Below, one piece after another: positions 15,574 through 49,562 of a stretch of DNA of 64,000 nucleotides. The translations under genes and the position numbers were made by a program. Position 1 is the stretch's first letter. Each line of letters starts with the position of its first letter. The notes under the pieces are model-generated. The model worked only from the letters and a program-made list of their open reading frames with translations, was not told where the DNA came from and searched no databases. The stretch is from Escherichia phage RB43: the sequence record NC_007023.1; one strand, 5' to 3'.

Positions 15574-16106
15574 TAGTAGTTGTTAGCCCAACGACGCAGG
15601 TTTTCAGCCTGTTTCAGAGCATACAGCTTATAGATGGTTTCCGCATCCATACCCAGCGCAAGGAACTTGCACATGAAGAAATGCCACTGGTCGATCATTT
15701 CGAACAGGATTTCCAGTTTATCTTCTTCGCTCATTTCAGCGAATACCTGGTTACGCAGTTCCTGATGATTTGCTTTCCACGGCTTCCAGACACCAGAAGC
15801 AGGTTTAACACCGCGAGACATACCACCCAGAGCGGTGTAGAGTTCGCGGGTCTCGTCTGCGATCGCATCATCTTGCAGTTTCAACCAATCCAGAATTTCA
15901 CCACAGGTTTTCAGTCCATCAGGACGCGGAACCCAACTGAGGGTATCAGAAAGGCTTTGCTGTGCATGATCCTGTAGATCCAGCATAGATTGCAGAGGGT
16001 CGCCATTACGTGCCAGCACTTTTTTGTATTCATTATCAACAAATTCCAGATCGGCAGGATTTACCAGGTGCGCACAGGAATTAAAAACAGGAGTTTTATC
16101 AGTCAT
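15573..16106 (-). CDS. 56: dCTP pyrophosphatase gp56-like (MazG-like)
   Basis: Segments CAHL, ELYTALGGMSRG, EILFEMIDQWHF resemble T4 gp56. Confidence 0.7.
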   Translation of the reverse strand: MTDKTPVFNSCAHLVNPADLEFVDNEYKKVLARNGDPLQSMLDLQDHAQQSLSDTLSWVPRPDGLKTCGEILDWLKLQDDAIADETRELYTALGGMSRGVKPASGVWKPWKANHQELRNQVFAEMSEEDKLEILFEMIDQWHFFMCKFLALGMDAETIYKLYALKQAENLRRWANNY

Positions 16107-16600
16107 TTATTTGTCTCTTCATTATGAAAATTGCCGAAAATATCTTTTGCGGCATCATTGTAAGCGGCTTGTGCTTCTTCAACAGTTGCAAACGAACCTA
16201 AATGTTTTCTTTTGCCCTTGTATTGAATACTTGCAGAAAATCGGCTACCGCGAGGGTATACACCAATAGAACCGCTTGTGTTGTTTTTGCGTTTGTTGAT
16301 GTGGTTTGCATTGTTTTCCGCTGTACTTGCAGGACGCAGGTTATCAGGGAAGTCTCCTACATCGACACCTTTGATATGGTCAATCATATCAGGAAGATAC
16401 CCGAAACGCGAGTAAAATATAACACGATGTCGCATATATTTCACGCCTTTTGTTTCTATACGAGTATATCCCTTTTTGGTTTTCGTCCCAGCTTCCATAT
16501 CATTTTTAAGCCAGTAAACCTTTCCGGTATTGTAATCTATTCTAACCTTAGTCAGAAGATCCTTTATACCATCTATTTCTTTTTCGGACTTCGATCCCAT
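16103..16600 (-). CDS. HNH homing endonuclease with AP2-like DNA-binding domain
   Basis: HRVIFYSRFGYLPDMIDHIKGV HNH core and C-terminal GVYPRGSRFSASIQYKGKRKHLGSFATVEEA; overlaps primase 3' end by 28 nt. Confidence 0.7.
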   Translation of the reverse strand: MGSKSEKEIDGIKDLLTKVRIDYNTGKVYWLKNDMEAGTKTKKGYTRIETKGVKYMRHRVIFYSRFGYLPDMIDHIKGVDVGDFPDNLRPASTAENNANHINKRKNNTSGSIGVYPRGSRFSASIQYKGKRKHLGSFATVEEAQAAYNDAAKDIFGNFHNEETNK

Positions 16601-17601
16601 TGGTTGAATCTCAATTTTGCAGTTAAACCGGACACTGTATTTTCTTTCAGATACTTCGCAATGTCTGCTTTTGTAGCACCATCACTTTTAATCATTTCGT
16701 TGATATCTTTCGAAGGCCAGGGGCATTTATCCCATAACACGACCTTTTCTCCAGCATCAATCAATTTTTTTAACCTTGCGGTAGTATCTGGATGATGTCG
16801 TTCATTGTCAAGTACCCAAACACGCATATTTTTATAGGGAACCTCAGACAGTGCTAACTGTCCACCAGTGATCGCACCAGCATTATCAACAAACAAGCTA
16901 TCCAATGGCCCTTCAAGGAAGTAAACAGTTTTCAACGGATCGATGGTATCTTGACCATATATTTTCGTTGACTGTTCACATGCTTTGATAGTCATGTATT
17001 TTGCTGCTGCATTGTCACGCAAAGCACGTCCCTGGAATGATTCGATTTTACCTTTGTTGTCGAAGATAGGAATCACTAAGCGCGGTTCATCCTTCGGCAA
17101 TGGGTATGAATCAGGGTTAACAGAATTAACCAGGTGTTGCCATTGACGCGTAAACCAGAGGCGATCATATTTGTCTTTAGGTATGTGACGACCTGCAACA
17201 TACTTAACGATAGGATGATTTTCAGGTAACGTGTCCAGACGTTCACAGAACTGCAATTCAGGAATGTATTTCTTTTCTTCCTTCGGCGGTTCTGTATGTG
17301 TTGTTTTGGTTTGTTTGCGATCCTTGAACGATTCCATAAGATAATCCCTGTAATCGTCAGGGTAATAATCTTTAAGGAACACAGTAAACGGTCGGTTATA
17401 CCCACAGTTAAAACAACCACAGTTCATGTGATCGCCTTTCTTCGACGGATAGATCCAGAAACGTTTTTTGTGTTTGTCTTTCATGGAGTCGCCACAAATC
17501 GGACAACGGGAATGGATGCTCAATGCACCACCCCGTCGAACGATTTCACTTTGTGGTAATGATCCCATGATACGAGTCGCAAACTCAATATCAAGATACA
17601 T
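16573..17601 (-). CDS. 61: DNA primase gp61
   Basis: Zn finger CPICGD...CFNCGY and primase core; 342 aa. Confidence 0.85.
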   Translation of the reverse strand: MYLDIEFATRIMGSLPQSEIVRRGGALSIHSRCPICGDSMKDKHKKRFWIYPSKKGDHMNCGCFNCGYNRPFTVFLKDYYPDDYRDYLMESFKDRKQTKTTHTEPPKEEKKYIPELQFCERLDTLPENHPIVKYVAGRHIPKDKYDRLWFTRQWQHLVNSVNPDSYPLPKDEPRLVIPIFDNKGKIESFQGRALRDNAAAKYMTIKACEQSTKIYGQDTIDPLKTVYFLEGPLDSLFVDNAGAITGGQLALSEVPYKNMRVWVLDNERHHPDTTARLKKLIDAGEKVVLWDKCPWPSKDINEMIKSDGATKADIAKYLKENTVSGLTAKLRFNQWDRSPKKK

Positions 17602-39701: not shown

Positions 39702-40279
39702 GCAAAGTAAAAGCAGTTTTCGCAGTCGGTAATGACGCATATGACGAAGATTTTGCGTTTGGCTACCAGCAGGGTTTACCGTGGGGACACTGCAAAGAGG
39801 ATTTGCAGAACTTCAAAGCAGAAACCGCAAATAGTGTCCTGATCATGGGTGCAAACACTTTTACTTCTCTGCCTGGTAAATTGCCAGGGAGAGTTCATTG
39901 CGTTCTGTCTGCATCCGGTCAACGTTTGGTAACGAAGAACGGGAATACCGCTGATTACATTATTCACTGTGGCGGGTTGTCTGCTGCAATCGACGTGATG
40001 AAAGCAACGCATCCAGATAGTGATGTGTGTATCATTGGTGGTAAGGGGTTGCTTCTGGAAGCAATCAATAATACACTGGTTGATGAATTAGTCATAACTC
40101 ACGTTTATGGACATCGTGTGTATAATGCACCAGCGTTTAAACGTGATGTTTCGTTTAGCGTCAAAGAATTCTATGATGCAGTCTTGAAGTACGGATATTG
40201 TGATTTTGAAACTATCCATATTCACGACAACGAACGCGTTGCAAAACTCGTAATTGATCGATATACGAAAAAGGCATGA
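39698..40279 (+). CDS. frd: dihydrofolate reductase
   Basis: GLPWGHCKEDLQNFKAET and IMGANTF DHFR motifs. Confidence 0.85.
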   Translation: MSKVKAVFAVGNDAYDEDFAFGYQQGLPWGHCKEDLQNFKAETANSVLIMGANTFTSLPGKLPGRVHCVLSASGQRLVTKNGNTADYIIHCGGLSAAIDVMKATHPDSDVCIIGGKGLLLEAINNTLVDELVITHVYGHRVYNAPAFKRDVSFSVKEFYDAVLKYGYCDFETIHIHDNERVAKLVIDRYTKKA

Positions 40280-40280
40280 A

Positions 40281-41138
40281 ATGAAACAGTATCTTGATAT
40301 TATCAGGTTGGTTCTGGCAAATGGTGTTGAATCAACCGACCGCACTGGTGTAGGTACTATCCGTATCTTTGGTGCGCAAACCCGCTGGAACCTCGCAGAA
40401 GGTTTCCCAGCAACGACCAGCAAACAGCTATTCTTCAAACCGTGTAAGCATGAATTGCAATGGTTCCTGTCCGGTTCTACTAACGTTGATGAACTACGTG
40501 AAATGACCTGGGGAATAGGAAGCGATAAACGCACTATTTGGGACGATAACTACGAAAATCAGGCTAAATCGCTGGGATACTCTCATGGTTATCTGGGGCC
40601 AATCTACGGTCATCAATGGCGTTCGTTCGGTGGTGATTTGTATGGAAATCACAGCGTTGACCAGATTGCTCGGATCGTCAACGAACTGAAAACCACACCA
40701 GACGATCGCGGGATCATCGTTTCCGCATGGAACCCTGTTGATCTGGATAAAATGGCATTGCGTCCGTGTCACTGTTTCTTCCAGTTCGTCGTAATCAACG
40801 GTAAACTGTCTCTACAGTGGTATCAGCGTTCGGTTGATGTCTTCTTAGGGTTGCCGTTCAATATCGCCTCCTACGCTCTCCTGACGCATATTATCGCTGA
40901 TATTTGCGGGTACGAAGTAGGTGATCTGGTTTGGACAGGTGGTGATGTCCATATCTACAAAAACGCAATCGAGCAAGCGAAAGAACTATTGAAGCCGGAA
41001 CGTGAACCGTTACCGCTTCCGACCCTCTACATGCCGAAGGTAAATAGCTTACTTGATTTGGATCAAGAATTCTTTGACTCCATCCATTTGAAAGATTATA
41101 ATCATCACGGCTCGCTAAAAGCAGCTATGGCAGTATAA
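40281..41138 (+). CDS. td: thymidylate synthase
   Basis: Canonical ThyA motifs (DRTGVGT, ALRPCHCFFQF, YQRSVDVFLGLPFNIASYALL); uninterrupted. Confidence 0.9.
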   Translation: MKQYLDIIRLVLANGVESTDRTGVGTIRIFGAQTRWNLAEGFPATTSKQLFFKPCKHELQWFLSGSTNVDELREMTWGIGSDKRTIWDDNYENQAKSLGYSHGYLGPIYGHQWRSFGGDLYGNHSVDQIARIVNELKTTPDDRGIIVSAWNPVDLDKMALRPCHCFFQFVVINGKLSLQWYQRSVDVFLGLPFNIASYALLTHIIADICGYEVGDLVWTGGDVHIYKNAIEQAKELLKPEREPLPLPTLYMPKVNSLLDLDQEFFDSIHLKDYNHHGSLKAAMAV

Positions 41139-41178: not shown

Positions 41179-43434
41179 ATGAGTGAAATTAAGACAGTAA
41201 TTAAATCTTCTGGTGTAAGTCAGCCGTTCGAAAAAGAAAAACTGTTTAAAGTCCTGAATTGGGCCAGTGTTGGAAAGAATATTGATGTTAACGCATTCCT
41301 TGAAAGTGTCGTTGACCTGCTTCGTGATGGTATGACTACCAAACAGATCCAGGGCGTAGCTATCAAATATGCAGCGGATCGTATTTCCGTAAAAGAACCA
41401 GATTGGCAGTATGTAGCGGCGAACCTCGAAATGTTCGCACTTCGTAAAACCGTTTACGGGCAATTCGACCCGATTCCATTTTACGAACACATCACTAAAC
41501 TGGTTGATGCTGGGAAGTACGACAAAGAAATCTTAACCAAATGGACTAAAGCGGATATCGAATATTTCGAAGAGAATATTAAGCACGATAAAGATTTTGA
41601 ATTCTCTTACGCTGGCGTACAGCAGTTGATCGGGAAATATCTGTTGCAGGATCGCACCAACGGTGACATCTACGAAACACCGCAATATGCGTTTATGCTG
41701 ATTGCTATGTGTCTGCATCAGGACGAACCGCGAACCCTGAGCGCATTTAATCATGTTGTCGATTTCTACAACGCAATTTCGGATCGTAAGCTGTCGTTAC
41801 CTACGCCTATTATGGCTGGTGTGCGTACTCCTACGCGTCAGTTTTCCAGTTGCGTAGTGATTGAATCAGGTGATTCACTGGGTTCTCTGAATGCTGTAAC
41901 CTCTGCGATCGTGAAGTATATTTCACAACGCGCGGGTATCGGTGTTAATGCTGGACACATTCGCGCAATGGGTTCTAAAATCCGTGGTGGTGAAGCAGTA
42001 CATACAGGCGTGATCCCGTTCTGGAAACATATTCAGACAGCGGTTAAATCCTGTTCACAAGGTGGCGTTCGTGGTGGTGCTGCAACGTTGTATTATCCGA
42101 TCTGGCATTTGGAAGTTGAAAACCTGCTGGTTCTGAAAAACAACAAAGGTGTTGAGAATAACCGTATTCGTCACCTGGATTATGGCGTTCAGCTTAACGA
42201 TTTGATGTATAAGCGTTTAATCAATAACGATTACATCACACTGTTCAGCCCTGACGTTGCAAATGATCGCCTGTATGATGCTTTCTATCAAGCTGATCAG
42301 ACTGAGTTCGAAGAACTCTATACCAGTTTGGAAAAAGACCCAACGGTACGCAAGAAACGCATTAAAGCAGCAGACTTATTCCAGTTGCTTGTTCAGGAAC
42401 GCGCACAGACCGGACGCAAATATATTTTCAACAGTCATCACGTCAACCAGCAGGGCAGTTTCTCCGTTCCTGTTCGTATGTCGAACCTTTGCTGTGAAAT
42501 TGCGATCCCAACGTCACCTCTGGATGATGACGACAAGTTAGCAGGTGAAATCGGACTGTGTACGCTTATGGCTATCGTTCTCGATAACGCTGATGTAAGC
42601 GAATTCCCAGCCCTTACACGTATTGCAGTACGCGCACTGGATAACCTGTTGGATTACCAGAACTACCCTGTTGCGGCGGCTCTGAAAGCTAAACAGCGTC
42701 GTTCTCTGGGCGTTGGTATCACCAACTATGCTTCGTGGTTGGCAAGTAACTATTGCGACTACTCAGAAGCATACGCCGGAAACGTTCATGAACTGATGGA
42801 AGCGTTTCAATATAACCTGTTGGTTGCCTCTATGGAACTGGCGAAAGAACGCGGTGCATGTGGACTGTTCCATGAAACAAAATATGCACAAGGGCTGTTA
42901 CCGATCGATTGGTACTGCAAAACCGTGGATGAACTCGCGTTACCTGTGTATAATTGCGATTGGGAATGGTTGCGCGGCGAAATCAAAAAATATGGCTTGC
43001 GTAACTCAACTCTTTCCGCTTTAATGCCATGTGAGAGTAGTTCTCAAGTAAGCAACTCAACAAACGGGATTGAACCGCCTCGCGGTCCTGTGAGTGTGAA
43101 ATCTTCGAAAGAAGGTTCATTCAACCAGGTAGTACCGAACCAGAACGATCAGATTGATTTCTATGATTATCTCTGGACAATGGCAAAACGCGGTAATAAA
43201 GGTTATCTGTCTCATGTTGCTGTTATGCAGAAGTTTGTTGATCAAGCGATCTCTGCAAACACCAACTATGATCCGGCTAACTTCCCAGATGGTAAAGTGA
43301 AATCTGAAACCATCATTGATGACCTGCTTTATGCGAACTACTACGGCGTGAAAACTCTGTATTATCACAACACCCGCGACGGTGCAGGTGAAGACGAAGC
43401 AGAAGCCGATGATTGCGTAGGCTGTAAGATTTGA
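41179..43434 (+). CDS. nrdA: ribonucleotide reductase large subunit
   Basis: 751 aa; ATP-cone N-term; class Ia catalytic motifs. Confidence 0.95.
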   Translation: MSEIKTVIKSSGVSQPFEKEKLFKVLNWASVGKNIDVNAFLESVVDLLRDGMTTKQIQGVAIKYAADRISVKEPDWQYVAANLEMFALRKTVYGQFDPIPFYEHITKLVDAGKYDKEILTKWTKADIEYFEENIKHDKDFEFSYAGVQQLIGKYLLQDRTNGDIYETPQYAFMLIAMCLHQDEPRTLSAFNHVVDFYNAISDRKLSLPTPIMAGVRTPTRQFSSCVVIESGDSLGSLNAVTSAIVKYISQRAGIGVNAGHIRAMGSKIRGGEAVHTGVIPFWKHIQTAVKSCSQGGVRGGAATLYYPIWHLEVENLLVLKNNKGVENNRIRHLDYGVQLNDLMYKRLINNDYITLFSPDVANDRLYDAFYQADQTEFEELYTSLEKDPTVRKKRIKAADLFQLLVQERAQTGRKYIFNSHHVNQQGSFSVPVRMSNLCCEIAIPTSPLDDDDKLAGEIGLCTLMAIVLDNADVSEFPALTRIAVRALDNLLDYQNYPVAAALKAKQRRSLGVGITNYASWLASNYCDYSEAYAGNVHELMEAFQYNLLVASMELAKERGACGLFHETKYAQGLLPIDWYCKTVDELALPVYNCDWEWLRGEIKKYGLRNSTLSALMPCESSSQVSNSTNGIEPPRGPVSVKSSKEGSFNQVVPNQNDQIDFYDYLWTMAKRGNKGYLSHVAVMQKFVDQAISANTNYDPANFPDGKVKSETIIDDLLYANYYGVKTLYYHNTRDGAGEDEAEADDCVGCKI

Positions 43435-43438
43435 TAAT

Positions 43439-43457
43439 GCCCCTTCGGGGGCTTTTT
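43439..43457 (+). terminator. terminator-like hairpin
   Basis: GCCCCTTCGGGGGCTTTTT. Confidence 0.55.
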
Positions 43458-43470
43458 ATAAGGTAAACTC

Positions 43471-44646
43471 ATGTTAACAGTAATGAACACAAACCCCGAT
43501 CACAAACACTTAGAACAGCCAATGTTCTTCGGTGAAGATACTGGGGTTGCCCGATATGAAGAACAAAAACATCGCGTATTCGAAACTTTGACTGAAAAAC
43601 AACTGTCATTCTTCTGGCGACCGGAAGAAGTGGATCTGTCGATCGACCGTATGCAGTATGCAAAAATGCCGGAACACGAGAAAATCATTTTTGATTCTAA
43701 CCTGCAATATCAAACCCTGTTAGATACCATTCAGGGACGTGGCCCTAACCTGGCGTTTCTCCCGATTGCCTCTGATGTTTCAATGGAAACGTGGATCGAA
43801 ACATGGGCTTTCAGTGAAACAATTCATAGCCGCAGTTATACACACATTCAGCGTAACTTGCATATCGACCCGGCTAAAGAGTTCGACAAAATCCTTCGTA
43901 ACGAAGCGATTATGAAACGTTCGGCTTCAATGACAAAATATTACGATGACCTGATCGCAGAATGTCATGAACTGAAAAACATCGTTCTCAAGATCGAAAT
44001 GATGACATCCCACGGATACCCAGACGAATCGATCGCTGAATACGAACAGAAACGCAAAGAGCAAATGCGCAAATGTAAGGTTGCTCTTTATCTGTGTATG
44101 CACGCTGTCAACGCTCTGGAAGCGATTCGTTTCTATGTCTCGTTTACCTTTACGTTCAACTTTGCCGAACAGGGCAAGATGGAAGGTAACGCAAAGATCA
44201 TGCGTCTGATTGCCCGTGATGAAGCACTTCATCAGAAAGGTACTCAAAGCAAGATCCGACTCTGGCAGATGGGTAAAGATGACCCAGAAATGGCAGAAAT
44301 CGCGTATCAGTACGAAGAAGAAGCAACACAGATTTTCCTCGAAGTTTACGAGCAGGAAAAAGAATGGGCTGAACACTTATTCAGTATTGGTGATGTTGAC
44401 GGCGTGACACTGAAAAGTACAATCGCCTATATCGAACACTTAACCGACCAACGTATGCGAGCGGTTGGGTTACAGTCTCCGTTTAAACCGAGTCCTAACC
44501 CGTATCCGTGGATGAACAAATGGTTGAAGTCTGACAACGTTCAGGTAGCCCCGCAAGAGGTTGAAGTAAGTTCTTACCTGGTTGGCAACCTCAACACCGA
44601 GATCAGCGACGAAGCCTATGCAAAATGGCGACAAAAATACGCGTAA
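43471..44646 (+). CDS. nrdB: ribonucleotide reductase small subunit
   Basis: QLSFFWRPEEVD, WAFSETIHSRSYTHI, YLVGNL C-term; close to E. coli NrdB; uninterrupted. Confidence 0.95.
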   Translation: MLTVMNTNPDHKHLEQPMFFGEDTGVARYEEQKHRVFETLTEKQLSFFWRPEEVDLSIDRMQYAKMPEHEKIIFDSNLQYQTLLDTIQGRGPNLAFLPIASDVSMETWIETWAFSETIHSRSYTHIQRNLHIDPAKEFDKILRNEAIMKRSASMTKYYDDLIAECHELKNIVLKIEMMTSHGYPDESIAEYEQKRKEQMRKCKVALYLCMHAVNALEAIRFYVSFTFTFNFAEQGKMEGNAKIMRLIARDEALHQKGTQSKIRLWQMGKDDPEMAEIAYQYEEEATQIFLEVYEQEKEWAEHLFSIGDVDGVTLKSTIAYIEHLTDQRMRAVGLQSPFKPSPNPYPWMNKWLKSDNVQVAPQEVEVSSYLVGNLNTEISDEAYAKWRQKYA

Positions 44647-44655
44647 GGACATAAC

Positions 44656-45213
44656 ATGATTGATGCGATTCCCGTTTATACGGGAGTCCATCACAATCTA
44701 TACGCATACCTGGCGGGTTGTGTTGATTGTGATGGATGGATTAGTGAAAAAGGAAAGAATGGTTATCTGGTTGGGCTTACACAGCATATTCAACTATGGG
44801 ATGATATGGTTAGCATTCAATCTGATTTGATTAACGATGGTGTTGATGCAAAATTATATGAAAGAACCAGTAGAACAGGATTAGGTAATACGTTGATGTG
44901 CAACCTAATTATTCAAAAATCATCGGATCTCTTGATTCTGTTACCGAGAATCATTCCATACCTTCGATTTAAAAAGCAAAAAGCAGTTGACGCATATTTT
45001 AATTTGTGTAAACATTCAGATCTTAATGCAAGTTCATCCGATAATGATATGAAAGGAAGTAAACGAAAGTATTGGAAGCCGGAAGAAATATCCGAACTAA
45101 TTCGTTTACATTCGGAGGGTTACAACAACCCAGCGATAGGGATTAAAATGAATCGTTCTACCGATTCAATAAGTCATAAGTTGCATCGGTTGGGTATCAT
45201 GAGAAACGAATGA
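44656..45213 (+). CDS. LAGLIDADG-family homing endonuclease-like protein
   Basis: YLAGCVDCDGWIS matches LAGLIDADG motif; C-terminal HTH-like segment. Confidence 0.6.
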   Translation: MIDAIPVYTGVHHNLYAYLAGCVDCDGWISEKGKNGYLVGLTQHIQLWDDMVSIQSDLINDGVDAKLYERTSRTGLGNTLMCNLIIQKSSDLLILLPRIIPYLRFKKQKAVDAYFNLCKHSDLNASSSDNDMKGSKRKYWKPEEISELIRLHSEGYNNPAIGIKMNRSTDSISHKLHRLGIMRNE

Positions 45214-45620
45214 TGGAATCGAAAGTTTATAGAATGTCTCTTGACAAATGCGGTCGAATAGACCGCAGTTTTATCAAGTGTGGTGAGTTAAGAAATTGCG
45301 TTTACTGTATTGAAATCGACGGCGTGATCGTGTATGTTGGTAAAGCAAAAGACATGTGGAAGCGATTAGATACGTACAGGAATTCAAAATACTGGAGGGA
45401 AGCAAACCCCAGCAACATTTTGAAAACCGCACGTCTGGAAATGGCAATCAAAAAACGTAAGCGTGTGAATCTCATTGTGACAACACACGATGAAGAGACA
45501 TATCATGATTATGAAATCAACATGATCCGAAAAATCAATCCTGAATGGAACAAACAGCATTATGACAAAGCTAACAAAAAACCAGAAAACACTCTTCAAC
45601 CAATTGATGAAGCTGTGTAA
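45210..45620 (+). CDS. GIY-YIG nuclease domain protein
   Basis: CVYCIEIDGVIVYVGKAKD...R...E GIY-YIG pattern; ATGA overlap with preceding gene. Confidence 0.6.
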   Translation: MMESKVYRMSLDKCGRIDRSFIKCGELRNCVYCIEIDGVIVYVGKAKDMWKRLDTYRNSKYWREANPSNILKTARLEMAIKKRKRVNLIVTTHDEETYHDYEINMIRKINPEWNKQHYDKANKKPENTLQPIDEAV

Positions 45621-46719
45621 CGAAACCGAATGCTTTTACTTTATTGATCAAAAAACCGTAATGCAGACCCACGTTCGCATTTTCAACTATCGTATGGCGA
45701 GTTATTCCGATTGGTTGAAACCTGGTGCGCTGGAATGTCGCGGCATTATGTTTGCAATGGATGGGGATACCCCCGTAAAACTCGTCAGCCGTCCTATGGA
45801 GAAGTTTTTCAACTACGCCGAGGTAAAGGCATGGGAAGCACTTAAAGAGGCTCCTGTGACGATTGGCGACACCGTAGTTGATGTGATGATTAAGGAAGAT
45901 GGTTCCCTGATCTCTACATTCTGTGATTCCGGCTATCTGGGCGTTAAGTCAAAAGCGTCTGTACAGTCTGAACAGGCTATGGACGCAATGAGCGTGATCC
46001 AAACTAACCGCGCATTGTTCGAACGCCTTACAGAACTGGTTCGCGATGGATTCACCGTCAACATGGAATACGTCGCACCAACTAACCGTATTGTAATTGG
46101 TTATCAAGACCCTGCTGTTGTGATTCTGAACATTCGCAACAACGATACAGGTGAATACGTACCGTATCAGGATATTTTTGCTGATGCTGTGTTGCGTCCT
46201 TACCTGGTTGAACGTGAGAAAATCGAAATCACCGATCTGGATGCGTTTATTGCAGATGCGTACACGAAAGAAGGTTTCGAGGGATACGTAATCAAGACGA
46301 ACAAAGGTTTTGTGAAAGCAAAAACAAACTGGTACGTGAATCTTCACCGCACGAAGGATAGCATCACCAATAACAAAGATTTGTTCTTAAATATTGTTGA
46401 TAACACAGTTGATGACCTGAAACAATTATTCCTGGATGATACATATTCACTCAAGAAAATTGATGCGTTTGAAACTATGTTCCTCGATAGTCTGAATCGC
46501 CTGTCTGCAAAAGCATTCAAGGCGATTGAAGATACTAAAGGATTGTCCCGTAAGGATTACGCAATCAAACTGAGTTCGGATTTAACCCCAGATGGGCGCA
46601 TTATCTTTGGCCCGATGATGCGATATTTCGATGATACCGATAAACAAAAATTGGTTGATAACATCGTTTCTCTGATGGTTAAAAATTACGAACAGTTCAT
46701 ACCGGAAGAGTATAAATGA
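45562..46719 (+). CDS. rnlA: RNA ligase 1
   Basis: ALECRGIMF, KEDGSL (ligase lysine), APTNRIV, EGYVIK colinear with T4 RnlA. Confidence 0.85.
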   Translation: MTKLTKNQKTLFNQLMKLCNETECFYFIDQKTVMQTHVRIFNYRMASYSDWLKPGALECRGIMFAMDGDTPVKLVSRPMEKFFNYAEVKAWEALKEAPVTIGDTVVDVMIKEDGSLISTFCDSGYLGVKSKASVQSEQAMDAMSVIQTNRALFERLTELVRDGFTVNMEYVAPTNRIVIGYQDPAVVILNIRNNDTGEYVPYQDIFADAVLRPYLVEREKIEITDLDAFIADAYTKEGFEGYVIKTNKGFVKAKTNWYVNLHRTKDSITNNKDLFLNIVDNTVDDLKQLFLDDTYSLKKIDAFETMFLDSLNRLSAKAFKAIEDTKGLSRKDYAIKLSSDLTPDGRIIFGPMMRYFDDTDKQKLVDNIVSLMVKNYEQFIPEEYK

Positions 46720-47042
46720 ACATACCAGCTTTACCAAAGTTAAGTTCTTTGGTATGGCCTGTGATTGTGGGGCTATCTTTGATAGCCCTTTTTTATATTG
46801 CAGTCGATACCAAAATAGAAAACAGACAATTGTCTAATGATATCAAAGCATTACAAGCTGATATCAAGAAAGTCAAAGAGACAAACAACACCAACACAGT
46901 GATATACGTAGAGCAAAAGGCGAAGGATCAGCAACTGGTGAAAGATGCGGGACGTAAAGATCTGTTATTCAAAAAGCCAGGACTGATTGAAATCAAGATC
47001 AACAAATCATTCGAAGAGTATATGGAGGAATTCGATAAATGA
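46716..47042 (+). CDS. i-spanin-like protein
   Basis: N-terminal TM then coiled coil; upstream of lipoprotein gene. Confidence 0.5.
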   Translation: MNIPALPKLSSLVWPVIVGLSLIALFYIAVDTKIENRQLSNDIKALQADIKKVKETNNTNTVIYVEQKAKDQQLVKDAGRKDLLFKKPGLIEIKINKSFEEYMEEFDK

Positions 47043-48309: not shown

Positions 48310-48574
48310 ATGATCGAACGTGAAAATGTAAATGTTATGGTTGAACTGGGTGATCGTGTTAAAGTTGACAATCCTGTAGATTTGCAACTAAATTAACCAG
48401 TTAGGCCAACGTCTTGTTGATCGGCTTCCTGCTGGTTATAATGTGAAACTTGTCCGTGACGGTCAGTTCTCCTTCCTGTTGGGGATCATTAGTCAACGTG
48501 GTATCGTTGAACAACAGTTCGGAATCCAATGGAATCCGGTATCTAAATTTGTTACTTGGGCTGGTGTCCTATGA
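48310..48574 (+). CDS. small protein, frame broken at AAA run near 48390
   Basis: ATG ORF stops after 28 codons; +1 frame continues 60 codons and ends TGA overlapping next ATG (ATGA). Confidence 0.3.
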
Positions 48575-48840
48575 ATGAAACAAAAAATCCGAGTGATATA
48601 GTTGAGGTTCATGAAGCATGGATTCTCACTGATAAAGATAAGGTTCGGTATGGCTGTCTGTTCGGTTTAGTGTGTTTAGACCCAGAAGTAGACATAATGA
48701 CTAGCCCGATTGTATCTTATAGTCATCCAGCGAACACGGAATTTGTTGAAGTGATTACGCGATCTGGTAGCACGTATCGCGTAGTAAATCCAGATTCTGA
48801 TTTCATGAAGCAGTTATTAACCGTGATGGATGACAAATGA
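48571..48840 (+). CDS. hypothetical protein (89 aa)
   Basis: ATG 48571 (MNETKNPSDI). Confidence 0.45.
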   Translation: MNETKNPSDIVEVHEAWILTDKDKVRYGCLFGLVCLDPEVDIMTSPIVSYSHPANTEFVEVITRSGSTYRVVNPDSDFMKQLLTVMDDK

Positions 48841-49037
48841 AAAATGTTATCGTAGCGGCAGTGATAATGTGCATCATATCCATTATACTTGTTATAATGA
48901 GCACACCAAACAAACCGACTTCTAAGATAACACCATATCAGTCGAGCAAGACAGAAGAAAGCTCTTGCTCGATGCCAATGTGTGAATCGTTGGGTGGTCA
49001 TGATGCAATTGCTTTACAAGTTATGTTTGGAGATTAA
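48837..49037 (+). CDS. small membrane protein (66 aa)
   Basis: TM helix VIVAAVIMCIISIILVIM. Confidence 0.45.
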   Translation: MKNVIVAAVIMCIISIILVIMSTPNKPTSKITPYQSSKTEESSCSMPMCESLGGHDAIALQVMFGD

Positions 49038-49562
49038 ATGAAATTACTTCATATGATCCGCGCCATAAAGCAAAGTCAGGGTTCTCGATGTATATCGAAC
49101 CGTGTAGGCGCTGTTATTGTAATGAATGGGCGTGTGGTTTCACAGGGTACGAATAATACGGTTGATTCTGATTGTCGATGCGCCGATCATAACAATCATA
49201 TGCTGAATGATGAAGGTAAGTTGAAAGCAATTCATCGACCAGAACATTCAGCATGGTCGAACGATAACGAAATTCACGCTGAAATGAAAGCGTTGCTAAG
49301 TGCTCATACTAATGGTATCATGCTTAATAACGCAGAGTTATACACAACCGCTTCACCGTGTCCGAACTGTGCAAAACACATCGAATGGTATGTTGCGATT
49401 GGTGCAATAACTTCTGTATATTTCCTCGATAAATACGATCGTGGTAATGATGAATGGATTTCGCGTTTGCAAAAATATGGTTGCAAAGTGGAACAAATTA
49501 AACGGGAAAAGTTGGAACCTCATATCAACTTTTCTAATGTAGTGTTTAACAACAATGAGTAA
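49038..49562 (+). CDS. cd: dCMP deaminase
   Basis: Zinc-binding HAEMKAL and PCPNCA motifs. Confidence 0.85.
   Translation: MKLLHMIRAIKQSQGSRCISNRVGAVIVMNGRVVSQGTNNTVDSDCRCADHNNHMLNDEGKLKAIHRPEHSAWSNDNEIHAEMKALLSAHTNGIMLNNAELYTTASPCPNCAKHIEWYVAIGAITSVYFLDKYDRGNDEWISRLQKYGCKVEQIKREKLEPHINFSNVVFNNNE

Follow-up and report, generated by a model that had tools for sequence, protein, structure and literature searches.

A probable free-standing LAGLIDADG homing endonuclease gene with a tethered helix-turn-helix domain beside denA of Escherichia phage RB43

T4 and its relatives possess free-standing homing endonuclease genes (Seg and Mob) that lie between conserved genes, are sporadically distributed, combine a nuclease with tethered DNA-binding domain modules and spread by double-strand-break repair with co-conversion of the flanks (PMC2988022, PMC2993671). 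These enzymes belong to the GIY-YIG or HNH classes, and the table of homing endonuclease genes compiled for T4-related genomes contains these two classes only, without a LAGLIDADG class (PMC2993671). Intronless homing with co-conversion as their mechanism has been reviewed (PMC2993671, PMC3943268). I-CreI, I-MsoI and I-CvuI, encoded in ribosomal DNA introns of algal chloroplasts, are homodimeric LAGLIDADG enzymes with one motif per chain. Single-motif enzymes of the I-CreI type act as homodimers on a ~22-bp pseudo-palindromic site and leave 4-nucleotide (nt) 3' overhangs. A LAGLIDADG fold tethered to a helix-turn-helix (HTH) domain at the C-terminal end is found in WhiA (DUF199), a chromosomal housekeeping regulator with two LAGLIDADG domains per chain and lost catalytic residues (PMC3384342). 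Furthermore, LittleE gp14, an I-CreI-like mycobacteriophage protein of 177 amino acids (aa) encoded in an intron of a capsid gene, ends in ~50 residues with similarity to the C-terminal parts of HNH endonucleases from phages (PMC3706429). Here we analyze two tandem open reading frames (ORFs), ORF1 and ORF2, located between nrdB and the RNA ligase gene rnlA in a 64,000-nt stretch of Escherichia phage RB43 (NC_007023.1; this whole stretch is the window, and all positions refer to it). ORF1 corresponds to RB43ORF066w, listed in 2006 as 'LAGLIDADG endonuclease' with a Pfam E value of 0.15 (PMC1524935), and one of its Pectobacterium phage homologues is already annotated 'I-CreI'.

We are fairly confident in reading ORF1 as a free-standing homing endonuclease gene that landed beside ORF2, the resident denA gene. 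Both ORFs are conserved in related phages and are therefore not chance ORFs. The ORF1 stop codon TGA (45211-45213) is overlapped by the ORF2 start codon ATG (45210-45212) in the sequence gaATGAtgg, which is the ATGA overlap described by the sequence-only reading of this DNA; that reading also gave the tandem order between nrdB and RNA ligase and the coordinates correctly. The two genes and their parts are:

44656-45213, plus strand: ORF1 (RB43ORF066w), LAGLIDADG-HTH gene, 185 aa (ORF list)
44692-45024, plus strand: predicted LAGLIDADG core, residues 13-123, alpha-beta-beta-alpha-beta-beta-alpha (family alignment, profile, model, Foldseek)
44710-44736, plus strand: motif LAGCVDCDG, L19-G27 (ORF1 sequence)
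45025-45078, plus strand: flexible linker of ~18 residues, 124-141 (low predicted local distance difference test score, pLDDT; highest ratio of nonsynonymous to synonymous substitution rates, dN/dS, of the three parts, 0.26)
45079-45189, plus strand: predicted C-terminal three-helix HTH, residues 142-178, like HTH_38, GcrA, Myb and sigma-70 region 4 (Pfam, PHROG, model)
45210-45620, plus strand: ORF2, assigned as denA (endonuclease II), 136 aa, single-domain GIY-YIG (ORF list, 2WSH, PHROG 1111)

As its family alignment and a structure model show, ORF1 encodes an intact single-motif LAGLIDADG domain of the I-CreI type with a tethered HTH. The ORF1 sequence by itself is too divergent to reach the Pfam gathering score; the family profile and the predicted fold place it in this class. 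A single-sequence search of a set of 5.8 billion proteins returned only two clusters, and the family surfaced by exhaustive profile search, with ~50 full-length cluster representatives of 175-200 aa and many proteins with repeats of the C-terminal module only. Six residues (A20, D26, G27, Q43, K106 and W140) are invariant in an alignment of 44 members that are 24-89% identical to ORF1. The ORF1 sequence on its own matches I-MsoI weakly; the 44-member profile matches I-MsoI (E 1.5e-9), the engineered Mso-8G (7.8e-11), I-CreI (~1e-8) and also I-CvuI along the whole core (profile positions 5-115). In these profile alignments, D26, Q43 and K106 fall on D20, Q47 and K98 of I-CreI, with Q43 and K106 on the TQK and LKLKQKQA segments. 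We take I-CreI D20 to be the metal-binding aspartate and Q47 and K98 to be peripheral active-site residues (numbering according to established knowledge and PDB titles). Pfam families were matched by part of the members, i.e., PF00961 by 24, PF14528 by 18 and HTH_38 by 12 of the 44.

The AlphaFold2 model of ORF1 (31 homologues, pLDDT 87.5) contains a core consisting of helix 13-25, strands 28-32 and 36-44, helix 45-60, strands 66-74 and 77-86, and helices 89-102 and 107-123. It continues with a low-confidence linker (124-141) and a three-helix bundle (142-178). The top 24 Foldseek matches of the model are I-CvuI, I-MsoI, I-CreI and engineered variants (16-18% identity), and every match listed is a LAGLIDADG-fold protein with a probability of 1.00. 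The HTH-like tail that had been noted on this ORF is borne out by the bundle and by HTH_38, which matches residues 136-178 with E 9e-5 (single sequence, sub-threshold); PHROG 323 ('transcriptional regulator') matches the tail as well. The domain searches proposed earlier gave a divided answer, as single-sequence Pfam matches are sub-threshold for both the LAGLIDADG and the GIY-YIG domain, whereas PHROG, PDB, the family profiles and the structure model confirm both. Between the RB43 and KP27 copies of ORF1, dS is 0.69, dN 0.054 and dN/dS 0.078 (0.057 in the core, 0.077 in the HTH, against 0.26 in the linker), and ORF1 is therefore not degraded.

The three algal enzymes are thus the best matches of ORF1 both by sequence profile and by fold, and they share with it the single motif per chain, the core topology and the catalytic positions. 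They differ in being intron-encoded, in lacking an accessory DNA-binding domain and in having a longer beta1-beta2 hairpin, whereas ORF1 is free-standing in a T4-like phage, possesses the tethered HTH and is only 16-18% identical to them. Two observations concern the wider family. Large proteins (up to ~2000 aa) without LAGLIDADG also contain the C-terminal HTH module (~45 residues), in 3-11 tandem copies (P0005, P0028, P0040, P0045 and others), which suggests that it is a widely reused DNA-binding repeat. The family member P0061 (355 aa) has two tandem LAGLIDADG domains (two DxDG motifs) followed by one HTH; it is a single-chain derivative, repeating the known homodimer-to-monomer evolution of LAGLIDADG proteins.

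ORF2, as its matches and its position indicate, is the orthologue of denA, i.e., an ordinary T4-type endonuclease II and not a second homing endonuclease. T4 endonuclease II (EndoII) nicks cytosine-containing host DNA early in infection, and the gene order in T4 itself is nrdB-denA-rnlA. T4 EndoII (2WSH) is the best PDB match of ORF2 (E 1.2e-6), ranking above the UvrC N-terminal domains, and the residues of VY.GK..KR..YR and E...NP.WN.QH are kept between the two. ORF2 residues 3-120 match PHROG 1111 ('endonuclease') at profile positions 10-138 of 139 (E 6.9e-44), and the Pfam GIY-YIG match has 16.7 bits, below the gathering threshold of 22.6. G44, R52 and E102 of ORF2 align with T4 G49, R57 and E118, which are experimentally important in T4 EndoII (PMC2764454), and are kept in all eight relatives aligned; denA is intact and constrained in these relatives. 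The gene is annotated denA in RB16, Miller, KP27 and Lw1. Whatever occupies the interval between the nrdB stop and the denA start (hereafter the slot), denA lies between it and rnlA in every related phage examined (~170 relatives). T4 DenA and ORF2 have in common the length of 136 aa, the GIY-YIG residues and the nrdB-denA-rnlA position; they differ in the low identity outside the motifs and in the RB43 copy being a recombinant of two alleles.

No second domain was found in ORF2 in Pfam or PHROG searches, only the catalytic GIY-YIG domain; the sequence-only reading had rightly seen no DNA-binding domain in this 136-aa protein. T4 EndoII, too, is small, has a single domain and binds DNA as a tetramer (PMC2764454); the lack of such a domain is thus the normal state of ORF2 and not decay. 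With no tethered C-terminal DNA-binding domain and no sporadic distribution (denA is present in every related record examined), ORF2 lacks both defining features of a GIY-YIG homing endonuclease. The GIY-YIG half of the original observation is ordinary.

Some observations on denA concern its annotation and sequence. Several records call it 'homing endonuclease', which is likely an annotation error that the denA assignment corrects, and it is named 'UvrC' in EBPL (entries: L005 2269-2664 = Kp_GWPR59, Olmo, D6b). The denA gene of IME-CF2 (L001 1898-2188) is annotated with a truncated 5' end, its real start being ~35 nt past the nrdB stop. A GC-rich 7-bp stem-loop (TGCGGTCGAATAGACCGCA followed by a T-rich stretch) is located at 45249-45267 inside the denA 5' part; the denA alleles of RB43, RB16, IME-CF2 and the HNH type have it, and that of Miller lacks it.

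Whereas denA is constant, its left neighbour is not. ORF1 was found by tblastn in only ~10 T4-like records (RB43, RB16 and the KP27 group/few Klebsiella phages), and ~170 records have the same flanking genes. More distant relatives of ORF1 (37-41% identity) are encoded by Pectobacterium (Certrevirus) and Phapecoctavirus phages (tblastn). ORF1 is absent from Miller, IME-CF2, CfP1, Lw1 and KP15, with flanks 98-100% identical. The comparison with relatives, which had been proposed as a way to define the insertion, bounds the ORF1 cassette at the nrdB stop and the denA start and reveals four states of the slot. The majority state is a DUF4326 gene (234 records have a copy at least 60% identical to that of Miller), which encodes 103-109 aa in Miller, Lw1 and KP15 (Pfam E ~1e-17 to 1e-18). 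ORF1 is the second state. In the third (Kp_GWPR59, PF-CE2, GAP161; L005 1758-2297, L006 1758-2297), the same slot is occupied by a 179-aa homing endonuclease gene of the HNH-AP2 type, present in 10 records from phages of Cronobacter, Enterobacter and Klebsiella hosts at 95-100% nucleotide identity. In IME-CF2 the slot is essentially empty.

The left junction GCGTAAGGAnATAAnATG is common to the ORF1 and HNH-AP2 cassettes. The nrdB stop context is GCG TAA where a homing endonuclease gene is present and GCT TGA in Miller and IME-CF2. Two unrelated endonuclease genes, ORF1 and HNH-AP2, compete for one site. The DUF4326 gene of Miller, which is unrelated to ORF1, terminates on the same ATGATGG across the start codon of denA, so that the ATGA coupling goes with the slot and not with a two-gene element. 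Genes of the HNH-AP2 type also occur elsewhere: RB16 has one, 'putative homing endonuclease RB16 3', between nrdA and nrdB (L007 6808-7296; HNH_3 E 1e-12), where RB43 has a 36-nt spacer only (43435-43470). In the RB43 window, a 165-aa HNH-AP2 homing endonuclease-like ORF with an AP2-like tail (...YKGKRKHLGSFATVEEAQAAYNDAA) lies at 16103-16600 on the minus strand, between dCTPase-like and primase-like genes; as the RB43/Miller alignment is interrupted at this place (16106-16627), it represents another presence/absence polymorphism.

The comparison of RB43 with RB16 and Citrobacter phage Miller delimits a patch around ORF1:

44599-45490: 892-bp tract 100% identical between RB43 and RB16 (next-longest exact run in 14.6 kb, 234 bp)
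44643-45476: 834-bp part of the tract differing from Miller, comprising ORF1 and the first ~270 nt of denA
44599-44642: left crossover interval of 44 nt, in the last 48 nt of nrdB
45477-45490: right crossover interval of 14 nt (last Miller mismatch 45476, first RB16 mismatch 45491)

Over the 14.6 kb as a whole, RB43 and RB16 are 88.7% identical. Miller differs from RB43 in only 3 of 1176 nt of nrdB, two of them in the stop context (44643 and 44645), and in none from 45477 through rnlA; between these limits, the slot content is entirely different and denA nt 17-267 are ~78% identical. RB43 denA is accordingly a recombinant, its first ~267-281 nt being of the RB16 type and the rest of the Miller type. 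Beyond ORF1, the tract extends by up to 57 bp to the left of the ATG and 277 bp to the right. As the patch boundaries in the two comparisons coincide, a single event is the most economical reading, in which an RB16-type donor patch would have replaced the DUF4326 gene and the denA 5' part in a Miller-type genome to give RB43. Both presence or absence at a fixed site and co-conversion of flanking markers, by which intronless homing is recognized, are thus seen for ORF1. The patch is a gene-conversion footprint that bears the classical signature of intronless homing with co-conversion, and ORF1 appears to be mobile and recently transferred. A second, independent replacement is seen in Slopekvirus, between KP27 (ORF1) and KP15 (DUF4326); their flanks are ~99% identical, and the direction of transfer therefore is not readable from that pair. 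ORF1 resembles the Seg and Mob genes in its intergenic position, sporadic occurrence, inferred spread and modular protein, and differs from them in its class and in that the ORF1 allele replaces the neighbour gene, DUF4326, instead of adjoining it.

It has been proposed that DUF4326 is a rhodanese-phosphatase-like domain and acts on phosphates derived from ADP-ribose (ADP, adenosine diphosphate; PMC9503650). Ten metagenomic contigs encoding members of the ORF1 family were sampled for context. In nine of them (L012, L013, L015, L016, L017, L019, L020, L021, L022), DUF4326 is directly upstream (0-4 nt overlap/gap), one small ORF away or fused in frame; the gene in L016 had not been called and was detected by hmmsearch (E 1e-34). 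The endonuclease ORF of L013 continues into a second DUF4326 C-terminus (CTPLPCHGDVIIEYLEGLE). In L015, a DUF4326 3' end, displaced but complete, comes after the endonuclease gene; it extends from CFPKPCHGD to a stop of its own, and this stop overlaps the ATG of the next gene. P0053 ends in CKPWACHGD..., and Miller, Lw1 and KP15 have GC(T/S)C(K/A)PLPCHGD at the corresponding place. The cases of L013, L015 and P0053 indicate that a cassette supplying a substitute 3' end was probably inserted inside DUF4326 near the CxC codons. With less confidence, the homing site of the family may be placed in DUF4326, around the CxC...CHGD codons. If Miller were cut at this motif, the distance would be ~195 bp to the nrdB stop and ~90 bp to the denA start, and the natural tract would then correspond to a resection of ~195-240 bp leftward and 340-355 bp rightward, plausible values for what is a single event. 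RB43 has no DUF4326 copy or remnant in the 64-kb window (best E > 1); if DUF4326 is the target, an RB43-type allele without it would be immune. As a separate idea, immunity of all endonuclease-linked DUF4326 alleles through a long CxC-to-CHG loop is ruled out, since L019-L021 have the short form.

Beyond the assignment of ORF1 as such, we tentatively propose that it represents a widespread, uncharacterised phage family of homodimeric LAGLIDADG endonucleases with a tethered HTH, which specifically parasitises DUF4326. This is a serious possibility to which we give rather less than even odds. Most members would insert at the CxC...CHGD codons together with a replacement 3' end, and the RB43/RB16/KP27 allele would replace the target outright, so that homing deletes DUF4326 from recipients. 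In the literature searched, we found no earlier report that links DUF4326 to homing endonucleases, that describes a conserved family with an intact catalytic core and a tethered HTH or a T4-related phage with a free-standing LAGLIDADG gene, or that maps the natural conversion event. LittleE gp14, likened to ORF1 by its description, is similar in size and two-module layout; it differs in being intron-encoded and not linked to DUF4326.

The following scheme may be proposed. By analogy with its family, the ORF1 protein would form a homodimer in which the two LAGLIDADG helices pack together, each subunit giving the motif aspartate D26 to a metal-dependent active site, and would cut both strands across the minor groove. 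Contacts to the flanking DNA may be added by the pair of tethered HTH domains, which would make up for the short beta1-beta2 DNA-contact hairpin. In a mixed infection, the enzyme would cut a relative without ORF1, with less confidence in DUF4326 near the CxC...CHGD codons, and T4-type recombination repair would copy ORF1 together with adjacent donor markers. RB43 is just such a product: its backbone is of the Miller type, with the region from the nrdB stop to ~nt 270 of denA replaced by the RB16-identical patch that contains ORF1, at the expense of the DUF4326 gene found at this place in Miller, Lw1, KP15 and most relatives. DenA, a predicted host-DNA-nicking core enzyme, would be a mere passenger, partly co-converted with ORF1.

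Other readings of the locus have to be weighed against this one. The sequence-only reading took the two ORFs for a tandem, translationally coupled LAGLIDADG and GIY-YIG homing element, degraded or chimeric, whose GIY-YIG part had lost its DNA-binding domain. Both catalytic-domain signatures are indeed present, the ORFs overlap by ATGA, and the first ~270 nt of ORF2 did move with ORF1. However, the matches to 2WSH and PHROG 1111 and a position that is unchanged whether or not a relative has ORF1 identify ORF2 as the denA orthologue; T4 EndoII is natively single-domain (PMC2764454), the DUF4326-denA pair of Miller has the same ATGATGG overlap, and both genes are intact and constrained. Of the two homing endonuclease families claimed, the LAGLIDADG-like, mobile one thus stands and the GIY-YIG one does not. 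Degradation is contradicted by the low dN/dS of ORF1 (0.078), its invariant catalytic residues and the normality of a single-domain denA, and 'chimeric' applies only in an unintended sense, to the recombinant RB43 denA and not to a two-gene element. The tandem element is largely refuted, and we give it hardly any credence. It is also unlikely that ORF1 is a domesticated DNA-binding protein, a WhiA-like regulator of the neighbouring nucleotide-metabolism genes moved by ordinary recombination. A LAGLIDADG domain with a C-terminal HTH is the WhiA architecture (PMC3384342), the PHROG matching the tail is named a transcriptional regulator, and the strong purifying selection on ORF1 is unusual for a purely selfish gene. 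Yet ORF1, unlike WhiA, has a single domain and is mobile, and its catalytic triad, the equivalents of D20, Q47 and K98, is invariant across relatives of 24-89% identity; the two LAGLIDADG domains without catalytic residues that mark WhiA are not found in it. Its sporadic distribution, the alternative HNH-AP2 occupant and the DUF4326 linkage with displaced 3' ends fit a homing element. An obligate two-component nuclease made of ORF1 and DenA was considered separately and rejected, as >160 relatives have denA but no ORF1, and none of the 10 metagenomic contexts of ORF1 relatives includes denA.

Somewhat improbable as well, with a small chance of being right, is a view in which ORF1 is or was a homing endonuclease while the RB43 patch arose by general recombination between co-infecting phages, the protein being perhaps inactive or directed at denA, nrdB or another target rather than DUF4326. 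This view draws on several of the points that tell against our interpretation. T4-like phages recombine very often, the locus has other mosaic breakpoints, and ordinary recombination could move a patch, which is the main caveat on the word 'homing'. Over 44000-44598, i.e., in the last ~600 nt of nrdB, Lw1 (L008), for instance, matches RB43 and Miller at 99.7-100% identity (100% at best, ~88% beside it) and at only ~81-92% on either side. No co-conversion tract is resolvable between KP27 and KP15. The RB43-type allele has no adjacent DUF4326, the Pectobacterium and Phapecoctavirus homologues show none nearby, and L014 is the sole context of the ten sampled without it; these cases mean that the target may differ between lineages. 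Furthermore, ORF1 alone matches Pfam LAGLIDADG_3 with E 1.4e-3 and 19.3 bits, below the gathering cut-off of 22.5, and its nuclease activity is deduced from conservation. The neighbours of the Pectobacterium and Phapecoctavirus homologues had no Pfam matches and are uninformative on targets. On the other side, the patch is the longest perfect tract in 14.6 kb by ~4-fold and is centred on the region's only gene-content difference. The same slot is used by the unrelated HNH-AP2 gene, near-identical across three host genera, which points to endonuclease-driven turnover, and the 9/10 adjacency of DUF4326 is far beyond chance. We therefore prefer the reading of ORF1 as a homing endonuclease gene that landed beside denA. 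As an observation on its own, the Lw1 block at 44000-44598 is another recombination breakpoint that ends at the ORF1 slot.

The region is 100% identical to the Pseudotevenvirus RB43 record HE981739 (window coordinate = HE981739 coordinate + 400). The gene order is frd, td, nrdA, nrdB, ORF1, ORF2, rnlA, pseT.3, pseT.2, pseT, cd, 31, with names as annotated in RB16, Miller, KP27 and Lw1. Flanking features are:

40254-41138: td, single ORF, no interruption
41179-43434: nrdA, single ORF, no interruption
43471-44646, plus strand: nrdB, ribonucleotide reductase small subunit, left flank, single uninterrupted ORF (Pfam E 7e-39)
44645-44649, plus strand: Shine-Dalgarno-like AAGGA, 6 nt 5' of the ORF1 ATG, overlapping the nrdB stop
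45562-46719, plus strand: rnlA, T4 RNA ligase 1 type, right flank (Pfam T4_Rnl1_C E 1e-38)

As stated from the sequence alone, td, nrdA and nrdB are uninterrupted, each consisting of one ORF; frd, upstream of td, is a single uninterrupted ORF as well. A sigma-70 promoter scan of 43300-46900 gave 9 promoter-like sites (8.6 expected from shuffled sequences) and no element-specific signal. A terminator scan of the same interval gave 6 terminator-like sites (2.9 expected from shuffled sequences) and nothing element-specific beyond the known nrdA terminator. The rnlA start at 45562 creates a 59-nt overlap with the denA 3' end (45562-45620) and is backed by an end-to-end PHROG match and the Miller annotation; a later start with a 14-nt overlap is annotated in RB16, IME-CF2 and PF-CE2. 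The largest indel/divergent block between RB43 and RB16 within the aligned 10 kb is at 48500-49040, where RB43 has two small ORFs (48556-48840 and 48837-49037) just 5' of cd.

An intact I-CreI-type ORF1 adds the LAGLIDADG class to the T4-related model system of homing. RB16, Miller and RB43 represent a natural trio of donor, recipient and product, with the right crossover mapped to within 14 nt and the left one to within 44 nt, in which homing, co-conversion and the role of the HTH are testable. The compact single-motif core with a modular DNA-binding extension is of relevance to meganuclease engineering. The linkage to DUF4326 offers a candidate target for a family of ~50 clusters and hints at selection on a predicted ADP-ribose-processing gene. 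If the proposed parasitism of DUF4326 is true, ORF1 would be a gene-eliminating drive, with possible consequences for phage-host conflicts over nicotinamide adenine dinucleotide (NAD) and ADP-ribose.

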